From Aquifex aeolicus VF5 (GTDB lineage: Bacteria; Aquificota; Aquificia; Aquificales; Aquificaceae): a DNA stretch of 32,000 bases. Position numbers and translations under genes: made by a program. The notes below the pieces were generated by a model. That model was given only the letters and a program-made list of their open reading frames with translations. It made no database searches and was not told the origin of the DNA. The stretch is from the NCBI RefSeq assembly GCF_000008625.1, contig NC_000918.1, positions 750,001 through 782,000 on the forward strand, read 5' to 3'. The first letter of the stretch is position 1. Every line of letters starts with the position of its first letter. This document shows positions 1-18,295 of the stretch, piece by piece.

Positions 1-2287
1 AGAATCACAAAGAGAGAACCTGAAAATAAACGAGGACGGTATAAAAATACAAATAGAAGGATCTTTTGATAGTTCTTATAGCTTGGCTATAGTAAATAGG
101 GAAATAGCAAGAGCTTTAAATAAATTATTTCCCGGTAAAGTTGCCCTTTATTCTACGGATGGGTACGGAGATTTTGAACCTAATGTGGAATTTTTAAAAC
201 GGGATAAAGAAGTATACGAAATGTGGGAACGTTCCTCAAAAGGATATCATGCGGAAATAGTTATGAGAAATCCTTACCCCCCAAGGATATACGATATGAA
301 AGGGGTTATAAACAGTATGACTTCCTACGGATGGGAGGAATCAGAATACCCTAAAGAATATCTTGAAGATTTCAATATATATTTGGACCTTCTGCCCGTT
401 ACGTCACCTTATGTTGAAAAAGTTATGATTGATAACGGAATAGCCATACCGGTGTTTACGGTAGGACTAGGAGCGGATCACGTTTTGAGGTTAAAACCGG
501 AGCCCTATCCCTTAAAGACAAAAAAAAGATTTAAGTTCCTTCACGTATCCTCCTGTTTTCCCAGAAAAGGTGTAGATATACTTTTAGACGCTTACACTTC
601 CGTTTTTTCTGGAGATGATGATGTTGTATTAATTATAAAAACATTTCCAAATCCCCATAATAATGTAGAAGAACTTATAAAAAAGTACACGAAAGATAAA
701 GAAAATCCGCCTAAGATTGAATTGATAAATAAAGATATACCTTACGAACAACTTGTTTATTTATACCAAGTGTGCAATTGTGTTGTACTCCCTTCAAGAG
801 GGGAAGGTTTTGGACTTCCGGCAGCTGAAGCAATGCTTTTTAAAAAACCTGTTATAGTTACGAATTACGGGGGGTTTAAGTACTTTTGCAATGATAACAA
901 TGCTTGGCTCATAGATTACAAGTTTGCAAAGGCAAAAACCCATATGAATTTACCTCTCTCATACTGGGTAGAACCGTCTAAAGAAGAATTAATGGAAAAA
1001 CTAAAGGAGATTTATACAGCTCCAGAAGAAGAAATAGCTCAGAAAACGGAGAGAGCTTATAAGGATATTATCGAAAATTTCACTTGGGATAAAACTGTTA
1101 AAAGACTAATGAGCGCAATAGAAAAGACTAAAAAGTTACCAGTTTTCTTAAAAAATGATATTAAGGTTGGAGTGATTAGTTCGTGGAATACCAGGTGTGG
1201 TATAGCTCAATATTCTGAGTTTCTCGTAGAAAACCTCTCAAGAGATATAGAAGTAAGAATCGTAGCTCCAAAAGTGCCGGAAAAAGAAATAATAAATTCA
1301 TCAAAAGAAAGCAAAAATGTTAGAAGAGTTTGGAAAAGGGTGGATAATGATCGTGATATTTCAAATATAATTGAAGAATTAAAGGATGTGGACGCCGTTG
1401 TGATACAACATCACTTTGCATACTTTGACACTAATTATTTAGGTAAACTTATAAAAGCTTTAAAGGAAAAAAGAAAGAAGGTGTTTATAACTTTTCACTC
1501 TCTTTCAGCCCCTCCTCATCAGGATCTTAGAAATATAAAAGAAAATTTAGCAAAATTGGAAAGGATTTTTGTACATTCTATAAATGATTTGAATAAATTA
1601 AAGGATAAAGGTTTAATCGAAAATGTTGCTCTTTTCCCTCACGGGGTAAATCAAGTGAAAGTAGATCACGAAACTATAAGGAACTTAAAAAGAACATACG
1701 GACTAGAGGGAAAATTTATAATAGGAACTTTTGGATACTTAAGAAAACACAAGGGTGTTAAAGAGTTAATAGAAGCATTTACTCTTTTAAGAAAAGAATT
1801 TCCTGAAGTACACCTGCTCTTATTGACGTCCCTTTATCCCTCTCAGGATTCCGTTGAGTATTTTGAGGAGTGTAAAGCTTACATAGTAAATAAAGGATTG
1901 GTTAATGACGTTACCTTTATTACGGAATATATACCTGAAGAGGACATTTATTCTTACATAAGTCTTATGGATGTCGTAGTTTACCCTTATCAATTCACAG
2001 GAGAATCCTCAAGTGCAGCGGTTAGATACGCAATAGCGACGAAAAAAACTATAATTTGCACACCTTTAAGTATATTCGATGATGTATCAGACGTTGTAAT
2101 ATTCACCGCTTCTACAGATCCCTACGGCATATATATGAAACTCAAAGAGTTTATATCCTTCCCTGAAAAGTTTAAAGAATATGAAGAAAGAATGGAAAGG
2201 TATTTAAAGGCGGTAAACTGGGAAAGCTTAGGCAAGCGTTTATCCAACATAATAAAATACTTTACCGTATTGAAACCTAATCTTTGA
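1..2287 (+). CDS. Tandem two-module family-4 (GT-B) glycosyltransferase, WbdA-like mannosyltransferase type; 5' end lies outside the window
   Basis: The frame is open from nt 2 through the listed TTG at 83 (...[20 protein letters not shown]...), so the gene enters from the left edge. Module 1: [16 protein letters not shown]...[15 protein letters not shown]. Module 2 starts [20 protein letters not shown], with [19 protein letters not shown]...[17 protein letters not shown]. Confidence 0.85.
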
Positions 2288-16600: not shown

Positions 16601-18295
16601 ATGGCAACAAAAGAGAATACAGAAAACGTGCTGAGAAGTTATCTGGCAAAGTATAAGAAAACGCTTATAATTGTAGGGCTCTTCAGTTTATTTATCAATA
16701 TCTTGTTTTTACTCCCGAGTATATACATGCTCGCGGTATACGATATTGTAGTTCCAAGTACTAGTGTGCCTACTTTGTTGGTTATTACAGCCCTTGCAGT
16801 AGTTTTGTATTTTGCCCTAGGTTTACTTCAAAGTGTAAGGGCAAAAGTTATGCAAATAATAAGTTTAAAGTTAGATTCTGAACTGAATAAAGAAGTATTT
16901 ACCTCAAGTTTTGAATACGCAATACGAAATCCCTCAAAAGCGTCTGCACAGCCTATTAACGATTTATATCAACTGAAACAATTTCTTACCTCACCTGTAT
17001 TATTTGCAATATTTGATCTGCCCTGGGTTCCTATATACTTCGGTGTACTCTTTGTATTTCACGTTTACTACGGAGTGATGGCTATACTTTCCATGGCTGT
17101 TATCGTGGCTTTAGCTATTTTGAACGAGTACATAACAAAGAAAAAACTAAAAGAATCAAACGAACTACTCGTAAGGAGCACGAACTTTTTAAACAGAGCA
17201 CTGCTTAACGCAGAAGTTGTTGAAGCTTTAGGTATGAGAAACAATTTGTACAAAAAGTGGATGAATTTTTACTCAAAACATCTTAGTGCCTTTGAAGAAG
17301 CTACAGACAGGAACAACTTCTTAAGTAATTTAACGAGAATTTTTCGTATTATGGCTCAATCTTTAATGCTGGGACTTGGTGGATATTTAGCTATAAAGCA
17401 TGAAATTACAACAGGTATGATAGTTGCAGGGTCGATATTACTTGGTAGGATTCTTGGTCCTATAGACACAATAGTAAATGGCTGGAGGCAAATAGGTAAT
17501 ACTAAAGTTGCATACACTAGGTTAAATGAATTTCTTAAGTTTCTTCGTTTTAAAAGGGAGGTATCCGTTAAGCTTCCAGAACCGAAAGGAGAAATTGAAT
17601 TATCAAATGTAGTTGTAGTGCCTCCAGAAGGAAAAACTCCAGTACTGAGAAATATAAATATGCGCATACTTCCTGGAGAATTCGTGGCAATTATAGGACC
17701 AAGTGGTTCTGGAAAATCTTCGCTCGTGAGAACTATTCTTGGAATTTGGTTACCTGTTCACGGTACCGTGGAAATTGACGGAGCGGATTTGAAACAATGG
17801 GATAGAGATTATTTTGGCAAATTCGTAGGTTATTTACCGCAAGATATAGAACTCTTTGAAGGTACGGTTGCAGAAAATATTGCCCGTTTTGGAGAATTGG
17901 ATTCTGAAAAAATAATAGAAGCTGCAAAGCTTTCGGGTGCACACGATGTGATAATAAAACTTCCTGATGGATACGATACTTACATAGGTCCCGGAGGTAT
18001 TACACTTTCAGGAGGGCAAAGACAGAGGATAGCATTAGCAAGAGCTCTATATGGAAATCCCAGAATAGTTATTCTGGATGAACCAGATTCTAATTTGGAT
18101 GAACAAGGAGAACAGGCACTTTACAATGCGTTAATAGAACTAAAGAAAAGGAAAGTAACAACAATCATAGTGTCTCACAGAATACGCCTTTTAAACCTCG
18201 TGGATAAGATAGCTATTATGCAAGATGGTACGCTAAAAGCTTTTGGAAAGGCAGATATAATTATTCAGAAATTATTAAGAAAAAATGTAAATTAA
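16601..18295 (+). CDS. Type I secretion system ABC exporter (PrtD/AprD/HasD type, no C39 or C39-like N-terminal domain)
   Basis: N-terminal TMD with LFSLFINILFLLPSIYMLAVYDIVVPS, typical of PrtD-type exporters. Walker A GPSGSGKSS, signature LSGGQRQR, Walker B ILDEPDSNLD, H-loop VSHR. Confidence 0.9.
   Translation: MATKENTENVLRSYLAKYKKTLIIVGLFSLFINILFLLPSIYMLAVYDIVVPSTSVPTLLVITALAVVLYFALGLLQSVRAKVMQIISLKLDSELNKEVFTSSFEYAIRNPSKASAQPINDLYQLKQFLTSPVLFAIFDLPWVPIYFGVLFVFHVYYGVMAILSMAVIVALAILNEYITKKKLKESNELLVRSTNFLNRALLNAEVVEALGMRNNLYKKWMNFYSKHLSAFEEATDRNNFLSNLTRIFRIMAQSLMLGLGGYLAIKHEITTGMIVAGSILLGRILGPIDTIVNGWRQIGNTKVAYTRLNEFLKFLRFKREVSVKLPEPKGEIELSNVVVVPPEGKTPVLRNINMRILPGEFVAIIGPSGSGKSSLVRTILGIWLPVHGTVEIDGADLKQWDRDYFGKFVGYLPQDIELFEGTVAENIARFGELDSEKIIEAAKLSGAHDVIIKLPDGYDTYIGPGGITLSGGQRQRIALARALYGNPRIVILDEPDSNLDEQGEQALYNALIELKKRKVTTIIVSHRIRLLNLVDKIAIMQDGTLKAFGKADIIIQKLLRKNVN

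Follow-up and report, generated by a model that had tools for sequence, protein, structure and literature searches.

The only bacterial protein sulfation system known to us is Rax of Xanthomonas, which acts on a small peptide and combines a cargo (RaxX), a sulfotransferase resembling tyrosylprotein sulfotransferases (TPST; RaxST), a type I secretion system (T1SS; RaxA/B/C) and genes for the synthesis of 3'-phosphoadenosine-5'-phosphosulfate (PAPS; RaxP/RaxQ). Modification prior to type I export is also performed by HlyC, a cytoplasmic enzyme encoded in a T1SS operon, which modifies an unfolded repeats-in-toxin (RTX) protein before it leaves the cell. Here we describe a 32,000-nucleotide stretch of the Aquifex aeolicus VF5 genome (NC_000918.1, positions 750,001 to 782,000; hereafter the window), in which a 761-aa fusion of tetratricopeptide repeats (TPRs) and a sulfotransferase domain is encoded (7481..9766, minus strand) among genes for PAPS synthesis, type I secretion, an RTX protein and an O-polysaccharide. 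The first-pass annotation of this stretch had proposed a Rax-like sulfation-secretion logic with different parts. At the level of the family this proposal is supported, as cargo genes occur next to the enzyme, the enzyme is encoded within T1SS operons and its catalytic domain is TPST-like. As drawn for the window itself it fails, since the cargo gene is truncated, the membrane fusion protein (MFP) gene has been deleted and the PrtD-type ABC exporter gene stands alone.

Homologs of raxST in other bacteria are, according to the Rax authors, mostly unlinked to raxA/B, and Iyer et al. (2010) predicted hydroxylase/sulfotransferase operons acting on collagen-like or tail-collar proteins. Beyond these two reports, a literature search of limited coverage returned no link of sulfotransferases to T1SS, RTX proteins or adhesins, nor any description of TPR-sulfotransferases in T1SS operons, an absence which is no proof of novelty. 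A second system of relevance is that of Pseudomonas putida KT2440, whose RTX-DUF4214 protein Psh has its gene flanked on one side by an O-antigen capping operon and on the other by the divergent T1SS that exports it (bioRxiv 10.64898/2026.09.02.748959). Psh is reported to bind the O-antigen and to shield phage receptors, the mode of interaction having been left undetermined by its authors; the T1SS of the wild type is a pseudogene, a truncation described as common (bioRxiv 10.64898/2026.09.02.748959). That preprint makes no mention (0 occurrences of either word) of a sulfotransferase or a gene similar to the protein lysine methyltransferases (PKMTs) in the Psh locus. The S-layer protein RsaA of Caulobacter also binds O-antigen (PMC6978808). 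Methyltransferases of the PKMT family modify exported surface proteins, as described for OmpB of Rickettsia (PMC8232902) and, through KmtA of the same family, for the adhesin AtaA of Acinetobacter (PMC11784438). Compared with these systems, the A. aeolicus locus is read here, with a probability of roughly one half, as a module for the pre-export modification (sulfation and lysine methylation) of an O-antigen-associated coat protein of the Psh/RsaA kind, which has decayed in strain VF5. That TPR-fused TPST-like enzymes, often with a PKMT-type methyltransferase and their own PAPS supply, are widespread and modify large T1SS-exported surface proteins in the cytoplasm is suggested more tentatively.

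Judged by its gene content, the locus would be best described as a combination in which a sulfotransferase and a T1SS are paired as in Rax and joined by a PKMT-like methyltransferase, a coat protein resembling Psh/RsaA and an O-polysaccharide pathway of the O9a kind. It may represent a cell-envelope 'coat' cluster with three arms. The first of these would be an ABC-transporter-dependent O-polysaccharide pathway comprising GDP-mannose 4,6-dehydratase (Gmd), family 4 glycosyltransferases (GT4s), Wzm, a cap-reading Wzt and a DUF4214-methyltransferase in the chain-terminator position, and the second a T1SS (PrtD-type ABC exporter, MFP and TolC-like protein) with a calcium-binding RTX/DUF4214 surface protein as cargo. 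The third arm would be a cytoplasmic module of two enzymes, the TPR-fused TPST-like sulfotransferase and a PKMT-type protein-lysine methyltransferase, with genes directly 3' of the cargo gene and a PAPS synthase encoded nearby as its supply. In the proposed scheme, which builds on the observed gene identities, synteny, rearrangement scar and family similarities, we infer which molecule is the acceptor, in what order the steps occur and what the TPR region does: the TPR superhelix would hold the unfolded cargo, possibly by its C-terminal region, the catalytic domain would O-sulfate the held cargo with PAPS, the PKMT-like partner would, in the relatives, methylate cargo lysines, and the modified cargo would then be handed over to the ABC exporter by its C-terminal signal. 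In contrast to HlyC, the modification would be a sulfation rather than an acylation.

The protein encoded at 7481..9766 is, as initially described, a TPR-sulfotransferase with intact PAPS-binding motifs, with matches to TPR models and to Sulfotransfer_3 (160.6 bits); residues 1-480 form the TPR superhelix and residues 488-740 the sulfotransferase domain. The 5'-phosphosulfate-binding (5'-PSB) motif GMPRSGTTL (494-502) and the 3'-PSB residues R604/D608/S612 are invariant in 17 orthologs. The best PDB sequence matches of the catalytic domain are TPST1/2 (E 1.6e-11 to 4e-8), with the CurM polyketide sulfotransferase (E 1.4e-7) and the cytosolic sulfotransferases (SULTs) ranking behind. GMPRSGTTL aligns with the TPST sequence G(M/V)PRSGTTL, and the residues at the positions of the TPST P-loop Arg, the Glu located 21 residues later, the Lys of 'NKDP' and the 3'-PSB Arg and Ser (the last four being E518, K579, R604 and S612) are likewise invariant in the 17 orthologs, so that the P-loop, Glu, Lys and 3'-PSB residues expected of the TPST family are all present; we take these to be the counterparts of the named catalytic residues of TPST2. 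In the AlphaFold2 model (pLDDT 86), approximately 29 helices are arranged as a TPR superhelix, followed by a Rossmann-like sulfotransferase domain. Foldseek comparison of the whole model retrieved the TPR domains of OGT (top match), SPINDLY and NatA. OGT thus resembles the A. aeolicus enzyme as a TPR superhelix fused to a protein-acting transferase, with glycosylation as its chemistry rather than sulfation. On the model, the TPR likeness appears generic, though it is to protein-modifying enzymes, and says nothing on the type of substrate or the acceptor. The whole-model Foldseek search was discarded as a guide to the acceptor, as it reports only TPR superhelices.

The gene directly after the TPR-sulfotransferase (6060..7469, minus strand; 469 aa) encodes a member of the PKMT1/2 family, lysine methyltransferases that act on surface proteins of Rickettsia. 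A profile built from 11 orthologs matches Rickettsia PKMT1 (5DNK) with an E-value of 3.7e-37 over ~295 positions, profile positions 14-308 corresponding to PKMT1 residues 48-336, and PKMT2 (5DOO) with an E-value of 1.9e-34. The next-best generic methyltransferase is matched with an E-value of 3.8e-11 and over the S-adenosylmethionine (SAM) domain only; the similarity to PKMT covers the class I methyltransferase domain and the PKMT-specific region after it. In A. aeolicus and its closest relative (L088), the SAM site is not intact, with FFNEKKS in place of motif I (DLGCGxG) and a deletion of ~33 aa. Searched by itself, the A. aeolicus protein returned no PDB match and no Pfam methyltransferase domain, and its Pfam match is to PF10119 (MethyTransf_Reg). 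The two copies (L088 5581-6996, 471 aa) are otherwise conserved, with 53% identity, suggesting that the partner in these two genomes is probably a non-catalytic, retained pseudo-enzyme. In contrast to the family members described above, whose known substrates are autotransporters (type V secretion), the partner would here act on T1SS cargo, and we know of no PKMT that is paired with a sulfotransferase. The partner gene was overlooked in the first-pass annotation, together with the MFP remnant and the stop codon in a 288-aa gene described below; the O-polysaccharide genes (Wzm, Wzt with Wzt_C, GT4s, gmd) that make up the remainder of the locus were also absent from the parts it listed for this finding.

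PAPS would be supplied locally by a bifunctional ATP sulfurylase/APS kinase (sat/cysC fusion; 2277..3917, minus strand), for which the original assignment was sound: the product scores 896 bits against NF004040 (cutoff 669) and carries the Pfam domains PUA_2, ATP-sulfurylase and APS_kinase. The A. aeolicus PAPS synthase has been biochemically characterised and its structure has been solved (PDB 2GKS, cited in PMC3779200).

The initial proposal had been made to depend on a conserved neighbourhood in related genomes, and such a neighbourhood exists, with cargo-type genes upstream of the TPR-sulfotransferase in the closest relatives and in other phyla and classes. Close orthologs were drawn from a search for contigs encoding relatives of the sulfotransferase and from one metagenome scan (5 loci); individual loci are designated by L numbers. 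In L003/L004, L005/L094, L006, L093 and L095, a sulfotransferase 68-71% identical to the A. aeolicus copy is encoded in a common block, which comprises an opposite-strand GT4, gmd, a DUF4214-methyltransferase, a two-domain GT4, a cargo gene coding for a 722-786-aa DUF4214 protein, the sulfotransferase and a methyltransferase of ~516 aa. In L003, L005/L094 and L006, genes for CysQ, a sulfate permease, CysC, Sat and a further DUF4214 protein come next, and in these relatives gmd, the GT4s, cargo, sulfotransferase, methyltransferase, CysQ, permease, CysC and Sat make up one co-directional block. The L094 block ends with a divergent GT4 (the GT429 of L005) and a PrtD-type ABC gene, the product of which is 56% identical to that of A. 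aeolicus. The closest relative, L088 (sulfotransferase 82% identical), shows the gene order of the window with an untruncated cargo: cargo (at least 1079 aa), sulfotransferase, 471-aa methyltransferase homolog, small ORF, 288-aa gene, gmd and sat/cysC.

The neighbourhood is more varied in the more distant loci. In L089 (58%) an MFP gene lies upstream of the sulfotransferase and an RTX-like gene in convergent orientation lies downstream, in L090 (47%) the sulfotransferase is preceded by three RTX/Calx-beta genes, and L007 (45%) encodes a complete set of outer-membrane factor (OEP), ABC exporter and MFP along with SapC and a three-domain GT4. In L091 (45%), Wzm, Wzt (with Wzt_C), a 1176-aa DUF4214/RTX protein, a methyltransferase, the sulfotransferase, another methyltransferase and SapC are found. 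Hydrogenophilus thiooxidans (L008; 40%) encodes an RTX protein, the sulfotransferase and a methyltransferase, with CysD, CysN/C and TauE further downstream, past a convergent polysaccharide-biosynthesis gene. From the PrtD layout in L094, the MFP gene in L089 and the full T1SS in L007, the T1SS genes appear to be an ancestral part of the cluster. Among the relatives, the sulfotransferase is 68-82% identical while the large glycosyltransferase of A. aeolicus (GT885) is not orthologous to that of the relatives (GT805); cargo, sulfotransferase and methyltransferase are orthologous to those of the relatives and the large glycosyltransferases are not. SapC, reportedly first described in the S-layer secretion operon of Campylobacter fetus, is encoded near the sulfotransferase/methyltransferase pair in four loci, directly after it in L091 (12224-13000), L011 (12195-13010) and L012 (12103-12888) and across divergent T1SS genes in L007 (9855-10676).

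An acidic residue followed by a hydrophobic tail is the classical secretion signal of PrtD-type T1SSs. Cargo C-termini of this form (D/E plus hydrophobic tail, such as ...ADILLF, ...GDIFIF, ...SDIYLM, ...SDILIF, ...GDILLF and ...ADIFLT) are encoded by the gene directly upstream of the sulfotransferase in the window and in L088, L003, L005/L094, L006, L093, L095, L090, L011, L012 and L050. The upstream RTX gene of L008 ends in ...ANSILLF, with a hydrophobic tail and no acidic residue, and in L091 and L009 the cargo gene is upstream and separated from the sulfotransferase by a methyltransferase and a TPR protein, respectively. DUF4214 is found in the cargo orthologs of L003, L005, L006, L091, L011 and L012, and only the RTX repeats remain in the remnant of the window.

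The wider family was sampled from at least 80 loci with 27-40% identity, one genome per species and mostly Proteobacteria, with no Aquificae among the matches listed; their genes were annotated by seeded profile searches and Pfam. Taking the two sets of loci together, the TPR-sulfotransferase is preceded by a large gene with a T1SS-type C-terminus in the Aquificae-type orthologs, Hydrogenophilus, Desulfobacteraceae, Methyloglobulus, Halieaceae and six gammaproteobacterial loci. In seven of the 80 listed loci the sulfotransferase is encoded within a T1SS operon (ABC and MFP pair), compared to an expectation of 2% that was assumed rather than measured (p 0.001). These include Methyloglobulus L050 (a short contig), with two RTX genes, sulfotransferase, PrtD-type ABC, MFP and OEP, and Desulfobacteraceae L009, with RTX, TPR protein, sulfotransferase, ABC and MFP. 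The other five are gammaproteobacterial. In L019, L020 and L058 a cadherin-repeat adhesin of 1000-1550 aa is followed by the sulfotransferase, OEP, an LssB-type ABC and MFP, with an APS kinase next in L020, while L034 encodes a 1864-aa adhesin, sulfotransferase, ABC and MFP, and L030 the sulfotransferase, ABC and MFP. A partial sixth gammaproteobacterial locus, L041, has the same adhesin C-terminus (...ILTSQGLx) and is not counted among the seven. Intact operons are carried by the cultured strains Hydrogenophilus thiooxidans SS56 (RTX, sulfotransferase, methyltransferase), Zobellella endophytica 59N8 and Pseudomonas borbori DSM 17834 (the latter two with cadherin adhesin, sulfotransferase, OEP, ABC and MFP). 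No glycan genes were found in the flanks of L019, L020 and L058, which instead contain Abi, restriction-modification, beta-lactamase and UDG genes, or within reach in the short contig L050. Secreted surface proteins are likewise encoded upstream of the sulfotransferase elsewhere, namely an autotransporter (L052), an S8 protease (L013) and an Ig-like adhesin of 2783 aa (L021). A same-strand upstream neighbour of at least 1000 aa occurs in 9 of 45 cases among the 80 listed loci, compared to 23 of 788 other ORFs of the same loci (Fisher p 2e-5). Both this test and that on the ABC and MFP pairs are crude, and both support the association. The plain rule of D/E plus hydrophobic tail shows weak enrichment (6/48 vs 4%, p 0.017); it misses the cadherin-type cargo (...ILTSQGLx) and L008.

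Several further features were observed in this family. The C-termini of the cadherin adhesins of L019, L020, L030, L034, L041 and L058 are nearly identical, (M/L)P(A/I/G)(G/N)(I/V)LTSQGL(V/A/S), a degree of conservation unusual for a secretion signal; this shared terminus is a candidate for a peptide that docks on the TPR region. In L035, L066, L016 and L085, two to four paralogous TPR-sulfotransferase genes stand in tandem with no T1SS or cargo gene in view, so the family occurs in other contexts as well. In L021 (12552-20554), the Ig-like adhesin and sulfotransferase are followed by three ATP-grasp/Mur-ligase-type proteins, a P450 and an OEP gene, which may represent a further peptide- or protein-modification set.

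The resemblance to Rax thus lies in the components (cargo, TPST-like sulfotransferase, T1SS and PAPS genes) and, in the operons of L050 and L019, in the shared order of cargo, sulfotransferase and T1SS. In the window, a TPST-like sulfotransferase gene beside the cargo and genes for PAPS synthesis are present; a small ribosomal precursor peptide with a double-glycine leader as cargo and a C39-type ABC exporter with an adjacent intact MFP gene are absent. In contrast to RaxX, a 60-aa leader peptide, the cargo is a large RTX/DUF4214 (or cadherin) protein with a C-terminal signal, the ABC exporter, of the PrtD or LssB type, lacks a C39 peptidase, a TPR region of 480 aa is fused to the sulfotransferase, a PKMT-like partner is added, and in the A. 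aeolicus window the MFP gene and half of the cargo gene have been deleted. The Aquifex-type cargo shares with Psh its domain vocabulary (RTX, DUF4214), its genomic setting and even an inactivated T1SS: the cargo remnant is divergent from the MFP remnant and TolC-like gene, and wzt, wzm, GT4 genes and gmd are located on both sides. The position of DUF4214 differs, being N-terminal in the Aquificae-type cargo and C-terminal in Psh, and O-antigen binding, reported for Psh, would be a prediction for the Aquifex-type protein.

The state of the secretion arm in VF5 differs from that in the relatives. The RTX protein, placed by the first-pass annotation 44 nt upstream of the TPR-sulfotransferase and ending in NDGDIFVY, was rightly described as to its repeats, spacing and C-terminus, but is the product of a 5'-truncated remnant and not of an intact gene. 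The annotated ORF (aq_1091; 9811-11007, minus strand) contains no methionine (ATG) codon and no Shine-Dalgarno sequence. Cargo proteins of the relatives measure 722-1079 aa, and homology of aq_1091 to them begins only at 10875, equivalent to their residue ~401. The 3' half of the DUF4214/RTX cargo gene that remains (9811..10875; HemolysinCabind 68 bits) has 355 codons and ~6 nonapeptide repeats, is 31-34% identical to residues ~401-739 of the L003/L005/L006/L088 cargo proteins and ends in ...NDGDIFVY, 44 nt separating its stop codon from the start of the sulfotransferase gene. RTX nonapeptides and a signal-like C-terminus identify it as T1SS cargo, in a gene that is nevertheless 5'-truncated. 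When the RTX half was used as the query of a homolog search, generic nonapeptide matches dominated the results; no orthologs were returned, only the identity with aq_1091. Scanning the surroundings of the RTX ORF for promoters and terminators gave no useful information.

The first 44 codons of the aq_1091 ORF are the antisense of the 3' remnant of an AprE/HlyD-type MFP gene (10900..11142, plus strand), of which the last ~80 codons and the stop codon are left, ending 9 nt before the TolC-like start. The remnant was recognised by tblastn against the MFP of L007 (residues 354-428 of 430, E 4e-9) and BLASTP against that of L089 (residues 361-439 of 439, E 1e-11). A 24-nt junction (10876..10899), delimited by the ends of homology on both sides, joins the truncated cargo gene (minus strand) to the truncated MFP gene (plus strand). 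The TolC-like outer-membrane factor (11152..12429, plus strand) and the PrtD/AprD-type ABC exporter (16601..18295, plus strand; 564 aa) are both intact and had been correctly recognised, the former as divergent from the RTX gene. The TolC-like protein has two PF02321 (OEP) repeats (135.8 bits; its TIGR01844 score of 92.8 bits is below the cutoff of 225), while the exporter scores 830 bits against TIGR01842 (cutoff 510), covers positions 1-544 of that 544-position model and has no C39 domain in the NCBIfam and Pfam profiles. The gene directly after the exporter is fabH, in convergent orientation, leaving no MFP gene 3' of it, and profile and homology searches of the 32-kb window detected no intact MFP gene, the rest of the genome not having been searched for one. 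With ABC exporter and outer-membrane factor intact and the MFP gene deleted, the local T1SS cannot be a complete one of the PrtDEF/AprDEF type.

Decay is also apparent next to the module. A conserved 288-aa protein, encoded by an intact gene in L088 (64% identity over 287 aa), is represented here by a pseudogene (5047..5913, minus strand) which reads ...PDER*EVF... and is split by an in-frame stop (5515-5517) into two ORFs of 122 and 88 aa without hits (listed at 5047-5781). Pfam and NCBIfam searches returned no family match for the 288-aa gene, and a tentative assignment as a SET-domain methyltransferase or SapC-like protein was dropped. Directly 3' of the methyltransferase homolog lies a small conserved ORF of 43 aa (5931..6059, minus strand), which is 79% identical over 38 aa to an L088 ORF (60 aa; L088 6997-7179) that overlaps the 288-aa gene there; with the consensus MFNVEKWM.IA..YGAKF.NITFI.DEN.FVGAYA.D, it may encode either a small protein in its own right or the N-terminal portion of the 288-aa gene, set apart by an ancient frameshift. 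The scar, the stop codon and the lost SAM motif are features of the strain rather than errors of assembly, since L092, assembled independently from public reads, matches with 100% identity over 13,917 bp.

Based on these sequences, the protein arm is considered decayed in VF5, with the sulfotransferase, PAPS synthase, ABC exporter and TolC-like genes intact, and the system as drawn is predicted to be non-functional in this genome. In a rearrangement, the cargo gene would have lost its 5' half and the MFP gene ~350 codons. As these two genes point away from each other (cargo leftward, MFP rightward), a single deletion from mid-cargo to mid-MFP could explain the junction only if a second ABC gene had once lain between them, as in the Psh layout. 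The intact PrtD-type gene lies 5.5 kb away, divergent from a GT4 gene in the arrangement also found in L094; alternatively, a block of Wzt, Wzm, GT4, ABC, MFP and TolC genes may have been duplicated and then have undergone two deletions. A single inversion was rejected as the origin of the scar, as it cannot yield the present gene order.

The polysaccharide arm is represented in the window by Wzt, the ABC ATPase of an O-polysaccharide exporter (12407..13597, minus strand; PF00005 and PF14524, Wzt_C, 131 bits), Wzm, an ABC-2 permease (13594..14364, minus strand; PF01061 69 bits, with weak NCBIfam matches to KpsM and Wzm), a GT4 divergent from the PrtD-type gene (14571..16337, minus strand; Pfam, 28% identity to L005 GT429), Gmd (4007..5044, plus strand; PF16363 474 bits) and a two-domain GT4 (1..2287, plus strand; two Pfam Glycos_transf_1 domains). 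The last of these is the 3' part of an 885-aa gene which, in the gene call of the L092 assembly, starts ~370 nt before the window. The synteny of gmd is kept in L088, L003, L006, L093 and L097, and the wzt, wzm and GT4 genes are placed between the TolC-like and PrtD-type genes. The C-terminal domain of Wzt reads the finished chain end in E. coli O9a/O8 and Klebsiella O12. Wzm and a Wzt with a carbohydrate-binding domain, as in the cap-dependent O9a-type pathway, are both present, and along with the GT4s and Gmd they indicate an ABC-transporter-dependent O-polysaccharide, as predicted from the genes. Further parallels to the WbdD/Wzt system of O9a/O8 are the multi-domain GT4s, GDP-mannose-derived sugars and a methyltransferase gene beside a multi-domain glycosyltransferase; different from WbdD, no kinase is encoded here and the candidate terminator carries DUF4214 rather than the WbdD coiled coil. 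This terminator is a fusion of DUF4214 and a SAM-methyltransferase encoded upstream of the window and adjoining the 885-aa GT4 (L092 11631-15587, up to ~1.7 kb). It retains the motif VLDVGCGRG and is 35% identical to the DUF4214-methyltransferase that the relatives carry beside their two-domain GT4. It and the TPR-sulfotransferase are the two candidate cap enzymes, and neither resembles WbdD. A methyl cap made without the sulfotransferase is plausible, as the DUF4214-methyltransferase occupies the usual chain-terminator position, and we are aware of no precedent for a sulfate cap. The presence of DUF4214 in a probably cytoplasmic enzyme as well as in the secreted cargo of the relatives fits a role in binding glycan ends or a shared docking role.

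The Psh precedent accounts for the interleaving of glycan and T1SS genes and leaves two candidate acceptors, the surface protein and the polysaccharide. Were the latter sulfated, on the chain or at its non-reducing end, the chain would be made in the cytoplasm on undecaprenyl diphosphate with the helical N-terminal region of the enzyme as scaffold or ruler, the Wzt C-terminal domain would read the finished end, and the secreted DUF4214/RTX protein would bind the anionic, Ca-bridging glycan in the manner of Psh/RsaA, the genes being linked because coat protein and glycan must match. Cytoplasmic assembly, as in the O9a-type pathway, is compatible with a PAPS-dependent enzyme. We consider glycan sulfation the main rival reading and less likely than protein sulfation, yet several observations weigh for it and against sulfation of the protein. 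Nearly all loci of the A. aeolicus clade have glycan genes beside the module: Wzm, Wzt with PF14524, GT4s and gmd in the window, Wzm/Wzt(Wzt_C) beside cargo, methyltransferase and sulfotransferase in L091, Wzt near the sulfotransferase locus in L011, and the PAPS genes in one co-directional block with gmd and the GT4s in the relatives. As Wzt_C implies a capped glycan, a glycan acceptor fits this local context equally well. By analogy, Psh may explain the co-occurrence of cargo, T1SS and O-antigen genes without protein sulfation, as it is reported to bind O-antigen and its gene belongs to the capping operon, with the T1SS on the opposite side; RsaA shows the same binding (PMC6978808). In addition, the sulfotransferase and PAPS synthase of VF5 are intact while the cargo and MFP genes are broken; if the deletion is old, this would imply a role independent of the cargo. 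The survival of the intact enzymes is weak evidence, as the remnants have kept their reading frames open and the deletion could be a recent one. The similarity to TPST (E ~1e-11) is likewise modest and would not fix the acceptor, and in L001, where the sulfotransferase is located at the contig edge, no cargo-like gene lies directly upstream. FFYDTDD-like motifs seem to be common in RTX C-terminal domains. FFYDTDD (codon 9970-9972) contains the only invariant Tyr in the aligned C-terminal part of the cargo orthologs, and was rejected as a specific sulfation site, as a similar motif occurs in the L009 cargo.

A protein acceptor is supported by the order of cargo and sulfotransferase, which holds across very different cargo types and lineages, and by some operons that consist only of cargo, sulfotransferase, T1SS and APS kinase; the flanks of L019, L020 and L058 and the short L050 contig, devoid of glycan genes, argue against the polysaccharide. 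The PKMT-like partner may be the more telling clue, since the invariant partner belongs to a family of protein-lysine methyltransferases, and it is joined by the protein-enzyme-like TPR region and the TPST-like domain, the nearest solved relatives of which are protein and not carbohydrate sulfotransferases. The sulfotransferase also appears to be conserved independently of the glycosyltransferases, and is not needed as a cap enzyme, because the DUF4214-methyltransferase already holds the terminator position. That the adjacency has no functional meaning in this genome seems improbable. The locus would then be a patchwork in which envelope genes acquired by horizontal transfer are mixed with fragments of pseudogenes, the PAPS synthase would serve general sulfur assimilation and the sulfotransferase would act on an unrelated small molecule or lipid. 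Consistent with this are the GC content, which ranges from 0.29 to 0.48 across 7-18 kb, the scar, nonsense codon and dead methyltransferase, the tandem paralogous arrays elsewhere (L035, L066) and the result of profile searches, which found no second sulfate-activation gene in the window by which a dedicated could be separated from a general role. Approximately 60 of the 80 listed family loci, moreover, show neither T1SS nor recognisable cargo, so that the family is functionally mixed. This mixture also counts against the reading as pre-export protein modification, as does the lack of phylogenetic independence among the loci, the six gammaproteobacterial ones being of one type. Against a chance assembly, the order of cargo, sulfotransferase and methyltransferase, gmd and sat/cysC is syntenic with L088, the PrtD layout is syntenic with L094, the core triad is kept down to 40% identity in another phylum, and in the relatives the PAPS genes, CysQ and sulfate permease share an operon with the sulfotransferase and methyltransferase. 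The rest of the probability falls to some other explanation.

If pre-export sulfation of the cargo is correct, protein O-sulfation would be general for bacterial surface proteins rather than a speciality of Xanthomonas, and sulfation would take its place beside acylation and lysine methylation among the pre-export modifications of large surface proteins, in Aquificae, Proteobacteria and Desulfobacterota alike. The A. aeolicus sulfotransferase, with the solved PAPS synthase, would offer thermostable enzymes for in vitro protein sulfation, and the system would provide a handle on how coat proteins of the Psh/RsaA type are matched to the cell surface. Should the O-polysaccharide be the acceptor instead, the enzyme would represent a new kind of chain modification in an ABC-transporter pathway. 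In A. aeolicus itself the outcome is sobering, with only a fragment of the cargo gene left in aq_1091 and an incomplete secretion system at the locus; the interest rests on the pattern at the family level.

An AT-rich stretch at 14000-17500 (GC 0.29-0.35, compared to ~0.43 elsewhere) spans the GT4 gene and reaches into the PrtD-type gene, of which it takes in the 5' part, and nonetheless has the divergent GT4-ABC layout common to a relative. Housekeeping genes, including fabH, plsX and yceD, are found beyond the PrtD-type gene. Among these housekeeping genes, and unrelated to the question of sulfation, a Pab1020-type RNA ligase (PF09414 and PF18330) is encoded at 22733-23836 on the plus strand.

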